Assembly (NCBI RefSeq): GCF_050920415.1
Contig: NZ_CP169309.1
Direction: 5' to 3' (one strand)
DNA from: Escherichia coli
Lineage (GTDB): Bacteria > Pseudomonadota > Gammaproteobacteria > Enterobacterales > Enterobacteriaceae
DNA length: 64,000 bases
Shown piece after piece: positions 30,384 through 32,610 of this stretch (its first letter is position 1; the number at the start of each line of letters is the position of its first letter). The notes under the pieces were generated by a model, which saw only the letters and a list, made by a program, of their open reading frames with translations, was not told where the DNA came from and did no database searches. Both the position numbers and the translations under genes were made by a program.

Positions 30384-31817
30384 CTAATTATTCTGATAAA
30401 TATCTTTATACAAACGGCTTTCAAAACGCACTAACGGAATGCGGCGATTACGCTGAGCCGCGGGTTCTACCGCATAGCCAGAAAGATATTGTACAAACGC
30501 CATTCGTTGCCCGCTCGCTGTGGTAATGAATCCCGCCAGGTTATATACCCCCTGCAAAGAACCGGTTTTTGCTGAGACCTTTCCGTCCACGCCAGCCTGA
30601 TGCAGGCCCGCACGGTACTGCAAAGAGCCGTCATAGCCTGCCAGCGGCAGCATAGAGATAAAGTTAAGTTCATTGTCATGTTGGGCAATGTATTGCAGCA
30701 CCTGCATCATGGTGGCAGGTGCAATCAGGTTATGCCGCGAAAGCCCTGAACCATCGGCAATAATCGTGTTACCAATATCGATACCAGCTTGCTGACGCAG
30801 GATCTGACGTACGGCATCCGATCCGGCCCGCCATGTTCCGGGCACATTGAAGCGCGCATGGCCTATCATGCGGAAAACCGTATCGGCAATCATGTTGTCT
30901 GACTTTTTCAGCATAATCTTAAGCAGATCGTGCAACGGGGCCGACTGTTTACTGGCAACTACCGTTCCGGGTTCATTAACCTGAGTCTGGCGCAGTAGTG
31001 TTCCGCTCCAGGTGATACCTGCCTGTTTTAACTCATCTTTCAGAATTGCACCGGCATAGCTGGCTCCATCCTGTATGGCAAAAGCCAACGGGAGCGGCTC
31101 AGAACGTTGTGGCAGGCATCCGGTCAGCGTAAAGCGGTTCAGGTCGCCTGGCACCACATCCAGCTCGCAATATTGCGCTTCGGCAGAACCACGGGGGAGG
31201 GTGCGTACCTGGCTGAACATCGTAACAGGGTAATAAGATGCCACGCGTATAAAGGCCATATCACCGGGTTTTTGGGCACTGTAGAGCGAGACGGAGAAAC
31301 AGTTGCGGTCAACTATGGCGGCGGCAGGCGGAGCGCTAAAGCATTGTGTCATGTCATTCCACGGCCAGCCGGGGGCTTTATCGTGGCTGGCAAAAATGGA
31401 GGTGTCTATCAACACATTACCATCAATTTGGTTGACGCCAGATTTTTTCAAAGTCGTGACCATATTGCGAATATCCTGACGTTTTAACGTCGGATCGGCA
31501 CCAAATCGCGCCACTAAGTCACCCTTGAGTACGCCGTTTTCCACATTGCCTTTGGTTTCAAGCGTAGTGGTAAAACGAAAATCGGGGCCGAGTTGAATCA
31601 ACGCCGCCAGCGCAGTAATCACTTTCTGCGTACTCGCGGGCAACGCCATCTGCTGGCTGTGGTAATCAATAGCGGGGGCCGACGCGCCGACTTTTTGCAC
31701 CATCAGGGCAAGGTTGGCACCAGCGGGAAGTTGAGTAATGTACTCATCAACATTTGCGGCCTGAACACTGAACGCTATACAGCTGGTCAATCCGATGATA
31801 AATCTGGAAAATCGCAT
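30384..31817 (-). CDS. dacB: D-alanyl-D-alanine carboxypeptidase/endopeptidase PBP4
   Basis: 477-aa ORF with signal peptide, SxxK (STQK) and SxN motifs. Confidence 0.96.
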   Translation of the reverse strand: MRFSRFIIGLTSCIAFSVQAANVDEYITQLPAGANLALMVQKVGASAPAIDYHSQQMALPASTQKVITALAALIQLGPDFRFTTTLETKGNVENGVLKGDLVARFGADPTLKRQDIRNMVTTLKKSGVNQIDGNVLIDTSIFASHDKAPGWPWNDMTQCFSAPPAAAIVDRNCFSVSLYSAQKPGDMAFIRVASYYPVTMFSQVRTLPRGSAEAQYCELDVVPGDLNRFTLTGCLPQRSEPLPLAFAIQDGASYAGAILKDELKQAGITWSGTLLRQTQVNEPGTVVASKQSAPLHDLLKIMLKKSDNMIADTVFRMIGHARFNVPGTWRAGSDAVRQILRQQAGIDIGNTIIADGSGLSRHNLIAPATMMQVLQYIAQHDNELNFISMLPLAGYDGSLQYRAGLHQAGVDGKVSAKTGSLQGVYNLAGFITTASGQRMAFVQYLSGYAVEPAAQRNRRIPLVRFESRLYKDIYQNN

Positions 31818-31893
31818 AATCTCGCGCTAACAACCTGGAATCGAGCCGTCATACTACGGCGCAACGCCCTATAAAGTAAACGATGACCCTTCG

Positions 31894-31921
31894 GGAACTT
31901 CAGGGTAAAATGACTATCAAA
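31894..31921 (+). promoter_or_regulatory. Candidate sigma-E promoter of greA
   Basis: GGAACTT-N16-TCAAA matches the sigma-E consensus, ~140 bp upstream of greA. Confidence 0.5.
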
Positions 31922-31936
31922 ATGTGAATTGTAGCT

Positions 31937-31971
31937 GACCTGGGACTTGTACCCGGGTCGGTATTTTTTTG
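31937..31971 (+). ncRNA. graL: greA leader hairpin and terminator (GraL sRNA region)
   Basis: gacctggg...acccgggtc stem followed by ggtattttttt within the greA 5' leader; consistent with the described GraL leader transcripts. Confidence 0.5.
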
Positions 31972-32064
31972 CTTCTGGTCCCGGTGAGGAGTTATGCCGG
32001 GCAGGCCGAACAGCTGGGGTGGGTGGAGACTCGCCCCATCAGGAATATTCAAGAGGTATAACAA

Positions 32065-32541
<477 letters not shown>

Positions 32542-32585: not shown

Positions 32586-32610
32586 AAAAGGCCGCTATGC
32601 GGCCTTTTAT
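32586..32610. terminator. Bidirectional rho-independent terminator between greA and yhbY
   Basis: aaaaaggccgc-tat-gcggccttttt: symmetric A-run/stem/T-run. Confidence 0.8.

Follow-up and report, generated by a model that had tools for sequence, protein, structure and literature searches.

In Escherichia coli K-12 the greA leader, with its promoters P1 and P2 and the short RNA GraL, is already known and has been thoroughly characterised (Potrykus 2010, NAR 38:1636, PMC2836576; Dylewski 2019, IJMS 20:5224, PMC6829880). Primer extension revealed two strong overlapping promoters with starts 11 bp apart, P1 dependent on sigma-70 and P2 on sigma-E, and sigma-E holoenzyme transcribes from P2 in vitro; in reporter assays P1 alone was approximately as active as P1 and P2 together (Potrykus 2010, PMC2836576). 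The terminator was described as an 11 bp stem followed by AU7GCU2, and the short transcripts were physically released in a bead-release assay with no added factors (Potrykus 2010, PMC2836576). Release was spread over approximately 10 positions, which the authors called unprecedented for an intrinsic terminator. Termination reached 66% in vivo, where it was constant over growth, and about 60% in vitro, and removal of the terminator raised reporter output about 3-fold (Potrykus 2010, PMC2836576). GreA was found to repress its own expression 2-5 fold, independently of the promoter and of the region upstream of -36; for this autoregulation GreA must be catalytically active and the GraL sequence must be present in cis, and in the presence of GreA the level of GraL goes up and read-through goes down (Dylewski 2019, PMC6829880). 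The effect of GreA on termination was seen in vivo and never reproduced in vitro, which pointed to a further factor, and Hfq, the Nus factors and sigma-E were excluded as that factor (Dylewski 2019, PMC6829880).

Two wider classes are relevant for comparison. The first is the sigma-E (RpoE) regulon, of which greA is a core member (Rhodius 2006), and greA responds to sigma-E induction (Dylewski 2019, PMC6829880). In Salmonella a sigma-E ChIP-seq peak lies between dacB and greA; binding is lost when the motif is scrambled, and it is greA and not dacB that the site activates (Li 2015). The second class is that of small RNAs derived from 5′ UTRs, such as SreA of Listeria, which the authors cite as the other dual cis/trans case (Dylewski 2019, PMC6829880). 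GraL resembles these RNAs in being a stable short RNA that arises at a leader terminator and acts also in trans, and differs from them in having no ligand-sensing aptamer or alternative fold and in terminating imprecisely, over about 10 nt.

The window analysed here, a stretch of 64,000 nucleotides from an E. coli strain that is not K-12, contains the gene order obgE-dacB-greA-yhbY-rlmE-ftsH, and the genes that flank the leader are the same as in K-12. In the list of open reading frames dacB is on the minus strand with its ATG at 31817, and greA is on the plus strand at 32065-32541 (158 aa; the product is called transcription elongation factor GreA in the annotation of matching E. coli genomes); all the features described below are on the plus strand unless stated otherwise. 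A query of 401 nt around the site was present in 5425 of 5426 complete E. coli genomes, with dacB and greA annotated beside it, and was matched at 100% identity in two strains, MFDS1022581 and N96. Positions 31800-31985, including the promoters, the start sites, the stem and AU7GCU2, are identical to K-12 MG1655, and because of this identity the K-12 experiments transfer base for base. The start sites, the sigma dependence, the transcript release, the termination efficiency and the 3′ end were thus established in K-12 on the identical sequence, while the sequence identity, the fold and the conservation with covariation come from the present analysis. The Rfam model RF01769 (Enterobacteria greA leader) matches over its full length (model positions 1-124 of 124) at window positions 31848-31969 on the plus strand, directly upstream of greA on the same strand, with 127.5 bits and E = 2.5e-24 where the gathering score is 60. 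A reading made from the sequence alone had identified this interval as the greA leader with a sigma-E promoter and the GraL terminator; the Rfam score and the MG1655 identity bear it out, and nothing contradicts it. We therefore regard it as nearly certain that this interval represents the promoter-leader region of E. coli greA, in which overlapping P1 and P2 fire into the GraL intrinsic terminator.

The differences from MG1655 are five substitutions, at 31986, 32015, 32026, 32032 and 32037, all within the read-through part of the greA 5′ UTR (31975-32064) and none in GraL. Four of the five sit in a predicted hairpin at 32015-32038, where two change G-C to G-U, another disrupts the terminal pair and the last is a loop base. 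Stability beyond that of shuffled sequence was not supported for this hairpin or for the leader downstream of the terminator (z = -0.85 and -1.1).

For a comparison across Enterobacterales, loci were collected from species-level genomes with an anchor upstream of the promoters, ACTACGGNGCAA-N7-9-AAAGTAAACGATG. The search yielded 111 loci from the genera Escherichia, Salmonella, Citrobacter, Klebsiella, Enterobacter, Yersinia, Serratia, Pectobacterium, Brenneria, Sodalis, Erwinia and Pantoea, corresponding to 108 distinct sequences for the promoter columns and 98 for stem pairing; since the anchor lies inside the promoter-upstream block, the sample is biased towards relatives that keep that block. 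Downstream of the anchor greA was found at 108 of the 111 loci and divergent dacB upstream of it at 110, the remainder being truncated loci. There was no indel across 31848-31929 in the 108 distinct sequences, in which GAACT, TCAAA, TAAAAT and the A residues of both start sites are invariant or nearly so.

As read directly from the window, the sigma-E promoter P2 has the form GGAACTT-N16-TCAAA and occupies 31894-31921, with the -35 element GGAACTT at 31894-31900, the spacer at 31901-31916 and the -10 element TCAAA at 31917-31921. Compared with the sigma-E regulon promoters (Rhodius 2006), both elements and the spacing are a perfect consensus. The core GAACT of the -35 element is invariant in 108/108 orthologs and TCAAA in 107-108 of 108. 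The P2 start, A31927, lies 6 nt after the -10 element and 11 bp downstream of the P1 start; the sequence there is AA, as priming with ApA demands, and the A is kept in 106/108 orthologs, so that elements, spacing and start site all agree with a sigma-E promoter. In two respects P2 is unlike the sigma-E regulon promoters: it is interleaved with a sigma-70 promoter, its -10 element lying inside the P1 transcript (+2 to +6), and its transcripts mostly terminate 37-47 nt later.

Could motif and hairpin have come together by chance, without function? On its own one short consensus match is weak evidence, and when up to one mismatch is allowed 30 of 100 shuffles give at least one match (0.34 expected), although P2 is still the sole match in the window. 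Against a chance origin, the exact pattern has this single match in the 64 kb on both strands where 0.01 is expected per window from 100 shuffles, a whole bacterial order shows invariant motifs and a covarying stem, and direct biochemical and genome-wide evidence was obtained on the identical sequence. We consider such a coincidence vanishingly improbable.

The sequence-only reading missed the overlapping sigma-70 promoter P1, whose start at 31916 is 11 bp upstream of the sigma-E start. A consensus scan identified P1 as ATGACC-17-TAAAAT, with a 9/12 match to the consensus, overlapping the sigma-E promoter. The -35 element ATGACC (31883-31888) fits the mapped P1 start, and its ACC is invariant in 106-108 of 108 orthologs, only these three positions being informative as ATG was fixed by the ortholog search pattern. 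The -10 element TAAAAT (31906-31911), which lies outside the search pattern, is invariant in 107-108 of 108. The positions of both starts follow from published constraints, four of which bear on P1: the distance of 11 bp between the starts, priming of P1 with ApU and of P2 with ApA, and AAAA at +4 to +7 of P1 (Potrykus 2010, PMC2836576), together with the position of the greA AUG, +150, and the placing of +1 to +18 ahead of the hairpin (Dylewski 2019, PMC6829880). The sole assignment that satisfies all of them places P1 +1 at A31916, an A in 106/108 orthologs, and P2 +1 at A31927. Two further 5′ ends seen in primer extension, P3 and P4, touch formally on the objection that greA starts downstream of the hairpin would raise against the sequence-only reading; the authors judged them to be products of post-transcriptional processing, as they lacked consensus elements, were inactive in vitro with both holoenzymes and gave 17 and 6 Miller units (Potrykus 2010, PMC2836576).

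Genome-wide data were brought onto the window by the conversion window = 3360780 minus MG1655 coordinate, which reproduces the start codons of greA and dacB. A full-length greA transcript reported by SMRT-Cappable-seq (MG1655 3328168-3328861, reverse strand; Yan 2018) corresponds to window position 31919, 3 nt from P1, through approximately 32612, just past the hairpin downstream of greA, and is direct evidence for read-through molecules. No entries for greA or dacB start sites were found in the supplementary tables of Cappable-seq and Kim 2012. When the published P1, P2 and GraL coordinates were compared with the window, a check that the sequence-only reading had proposed, every published landmark fell on the expected base.

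Downstream of both starts lies the GraL intrinsic terminator, a hairpin at 31934-31962 in which GCTGACCTGGG (31934-31944) pairs with CCCGGGTCGGT (31952-31962) in an 11-bp stem closed by a 7-nt loop (31945-31951). Its predicted folding energy is -19.6 kcal/mol (z = -3.6 to -4.6 versus shuffles). Seven of the 11 pairs are GC and a T7 tract follows, as in intrinsic terminators: the stem is succeeded by A31963, T7 at 31964-31970 and GCTT at 31971-31974, the T7 ending 94 nt before the greA ATG at 32065. The published 11 bp stem with AU7GCU2 thus coincides exactly with 31934-31974. A sigma-E-like promoter, a stem and a T7 run upstream of greA had all been noted where we find them, and some details needed adjustment. 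The stem had been given as gacctggg/acccgggtc, of which 31937-31944 paired with 31952-31959 is indeed the core of the 11-bp stem, and the leading a of the second arm (31951) is a loop base; the distance from TCAAA to the stem, put at about 20 nt, is actually 12 nt, or 15 nt to the core described.

The termini of GraL agree with this structure. P1 chains of 49-59 nt (Dylewski 2019, PMC6829880) end at 31964-31974, within the A-U7-GCUU stretch (31963-31974) that constitutes the zone of imprecise termination. Counted on the sequence, the U-tract is 49-59 nt from P1 and 38-48 nt from P2, matching the reported chains of 50-60 nt and 40-50 nt and the northern blot clusters centred at approximately 55 and 45 nt (Potrykus 2010, PMC2836576). 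By Term-seq a strong 3′ end was detected under two conditions at MG1655 3328811 (minus strand), a position 96 nt ahead of the greA ORF, with a Rho score of 0.67 ("No") and an intrinsic score of 5.2 versus a threshold of 3 (Adams 2021). It corresponds to window position 31969, the sixth T of the run; published Term-seq, which had been suggested as a check, thus locates an intrinsic, non-Rho end where the terminator predicts it. By Term-seq and northern blotting the GraL small RNA extends over 31916-31969, approximately 54 nt in its P1 form and, from 31927, approximately 43 nt in its P2 form. In Supplementary file 3 of Adams 2021 the regulatory-element column is blank in the row for 3328811, though this is the published GraL terminator.

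The hairpin is maintained as a structure in the relatives. Across the 98 orthologs 87.9% of cells of the 11-bp stem can pair, a share that drops to 21-58% once the 3′ partners are shifted by 1-3 columns; the tested stem was taken from the sequence of the window itself, which favours the zero-slide register, and the MAFFT alignment takes no account of structure, so that the pairing counts are, if anything, too low. Compensatory double changes occur in 8 of the 11 pairs, and the number of double-change cells, 67, compares with 19 +/- 3.9 in shuffles, none of 500 shuffles reaching the observed value. The arms exist in 48 and 51 distinct versions, yet they remain complementary. As the alignment is not structure-aware, RNAalifold recovered only 4 core pairs from it, and the pairs were then counted on the specified structure, whose helix is also the terminator helix of the RF01769 model. 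Hairpin ends in the orthologs were located by a direct stem finder rather than by the MFE of the whole segment, since pairing of the 5′ A-rich stretch with the U-tract hides the stem boundary in the latter. With the stem finder, the hairpin with a T-rich tail was found to recur in orthologs; it allows no bulges and therefore under-reports bulged stems, for example in Pectobacterium.

The A-rich stretch AUCAAAAUGUGAA at the start of the P1 transcript is able to pair with the U-tract and its following bases (31916-31979), extending the terminator in the MFE; similar pairing is seen in many orthologs and is impossible in P2 transcripts. After the GraL hairpin the tract differs by clade: Escherichia, Citrobacter and Salmonella have AU7, most other Enterobacteriaceae have U4CU4 / UUUUCUUUU, and Pectobacterium and Brenneria have GGUUGCUUUU. 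The imprecision of termination seen in E. coli may for this reason differ between genera.

The presence of a terminator ahead of greA raises the question of whether a classical conditional attenuator or riboswitch-like element is at work here, with an upstream antiterminator that competes with the terminator and a signal that switches between them. "A clear antiterminator structure" was reported for greA leaders (Naville & Gautheret 2010), RF01769 is classed as "Cis-reg; leader" and carries three hairpins 5′ of the terminator, and GACCC at 31885-31889, as read from the sequence, is the complement of GGGTC within the stem's 3′ arm. However, the proposed 5′ sequences (31848-31915) lie upstream of both mapped starts and are consequently absent from the RNA; the candidates of Naville & Gautheret (2010) ran from the boundary of the upstream gene to the terminator, without start-site data. 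The real transcripts have only 18 nt (P1) or 7 nt (P2) ahead of the hairpin, so that no antiterminator can form, and both GraL forms fold only into the terminator hairpin, with ensemble frequencies of 0.52 (P1) and 0.90 (P2); a mutually exclusive antiterminator was not found within the transcript. Termination is moreover constant over growth, and the known effector, GreA, increases termination and does not relieve it. In 108 sequences compensatory changes were absent from the 5′ helices of RF01769 (31848-31918), where each variable position disrupts its pair (CA in 25, CT in 51, TT in 40 and AC in 15 sequences). We therefore rejected the three helices and the antiterminator, as they are upstream of the starts and show no covariation, and the transcripts fold only into the terminator. 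The attenuator reading was already largely refuted and in our assessment is very unlikely. The RF01769 model sets in 68 nt ahead of the P1 start as mapped, its positions 1-71 corresponding to 31848-31918, and thus about half of the model is promoter DNA and not RNA.

The strain studied here would be expected to behave as K-12 does, given the identical sequence, and the leader would then operate as follows. P1 (31916) and P2 (31927) would fire into one short leader, and after 18 nt from P1 or 7 nt from P2 the RNA would fold into the 11-bp GC-rich hairpin, followed by A-U7-GCUU. RNA polymerase would release about two thirds of the chains there, scattered over approximately 10 nt, giving GraL RNAs of 40-60 nt, and the remaining third of the transcripts would run on into greA through the read-through part of the 5′ UTR, to which the full-length SMRT-Cappable-seq transcript attests. 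Under envelope stress sigma-E would raise the input. Negative feedback would be exerted by GreA, raising termination at the GraL site in vivo, a process that would need the catalytic residues of GreA, the GraL sequence in cis and a further accessory factor. Released GraL would act in trans as well, nudE mRNA being the likely target (Dylewski 2019, PMC6829880). The sequence-only reading had implied conditional read-through into greA. GreA does raise termination in vivo, but with termination of about 66%, constant with growth, and no antiterminator, "conditional" is only loosely right and overstates the case: read-through is partial, largely constitutive and tuned downward by GreA, and is not gated by an alternative RNA fold.

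The purpose of the terminator may be viewed differently, in that it would be kept mainly to make GraL for its action in trans, the dampening of greA being a by-product. Overproduction of GraL alters more than 100 transcripts and improves competitive fitness, and two strong promoters followed by a terminator are, as the authors remark, an odd route to constant greA expression (Potrykus 2010, PMC2836576); the likely trans target nudE fits the same picture. On the other hand, GraL supplied in trans had no effect on a greA fusion or on GreA abundance (Potrykus 2010, PMC2836576), and GreA autoregulation needs GraL in cis, the authors arguing that the cis role evolved first (Dylewski 2019, PMC6829880). 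In addition, the hairpin arms and loop vary freely while pairing is kept (48 distinct 5′ arms), as would be expected of a structural terminator more than of a base-pairing seed, though the 5′ 14 nt of GraL are conserved. We find it doubtful that production of GraL is the main reason, and it does not exclude the preferred account, in which partial termination with GreA feedback sets greA expression in cis; the two may hold together.

Upstream of both greA starts, from -68 to -27 of P1, we observed a block of 42 bp (31848-31889), GTCATACTACGGyGCAA-N8-AAAGTAAACGATGACCC, whose sequence is the same from Escherichia to Yersinia, Pectobacterium and Sodalis, save for a variable 8-mer of fixed length. 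It stands at a fixed distance of 35-36 nt from the dacB ATG. The block is not part of the GraL RNA, though RF01769 includes it, and it is dispensable for GreA autoregulation. The sole sigma-70-like pair on the minus strand of the intergenic region is TTTACT-18-TAGTAT, a weak match (8/12), where TTTACT is the reverse complement of 31875-31880 and TAGTAT that of 31851-31856; both fall in invariant parts of the block, and the variable 8-mer falls in the spacer. The block may thus contain a candidate promoter for the divergent dacB, interlocked with the -35 element of greA P1, an arrangement that would explain the pattern of conservation. Alternatively, it may be a putative binding site of a regulator, conceivably tied to the further factor in greA control. 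We put forward only tentatively that the block is a DNA-level control element shared by dacB (PBP4) and greA. A dacB transcript was not seen by primer extension (Potrykus 2010, PMC2836576), and a literature search for promoter or start-site data of dacB found none.

Two other features near the leader were considered. An upstream ORF of 29 codons (31994-32083, ATG at 31994) was rejected, as conservation of its start codon, frame and length breaks down already within Escherichia, and it is therefore probably no real upstream ORF; its ATG is preceded by a Shine-Dalgarno-like GAGGAG (TAAGGAG in MG1655), and it overlaps the greA start out of frame. Between the convergent greA and yhbY, at 32586-32608, there is a perfect 10-bp hairpin, AAAAGGCCGC-TAT-GCGGCCTTTT; bordered by A and T runs on either side, it resembles a bidirectional terminator. 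It is flanked by published 3′ ends, that of the greA transcript at approximately 32612 and a Term-seq end of the opposite strand at approximately 32583. A match of Rfam STnc540 to the same positions was discarded, as it scored 20 bits versus a gathering score of 38 and merely reflects the hairpin downstream of greA.

The finding itself re-identifies a published, experimentally dissected element whose functional part is identical in sequence; as such it matters very little, and an element already known and well characterised is of low interest. Beyond it, the analysis corrects the view of RF01769, approximately the 5′ half of which, with the antiterminator idea attached to it, falls outside the mapped transcripts. 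It also points to the extremely conserved upstream block, whose function is not described in the greA/GraL papers cited here. Finally, it provides independent confirmation, across the order, that selection acts on both promoters and on the terminator structure.
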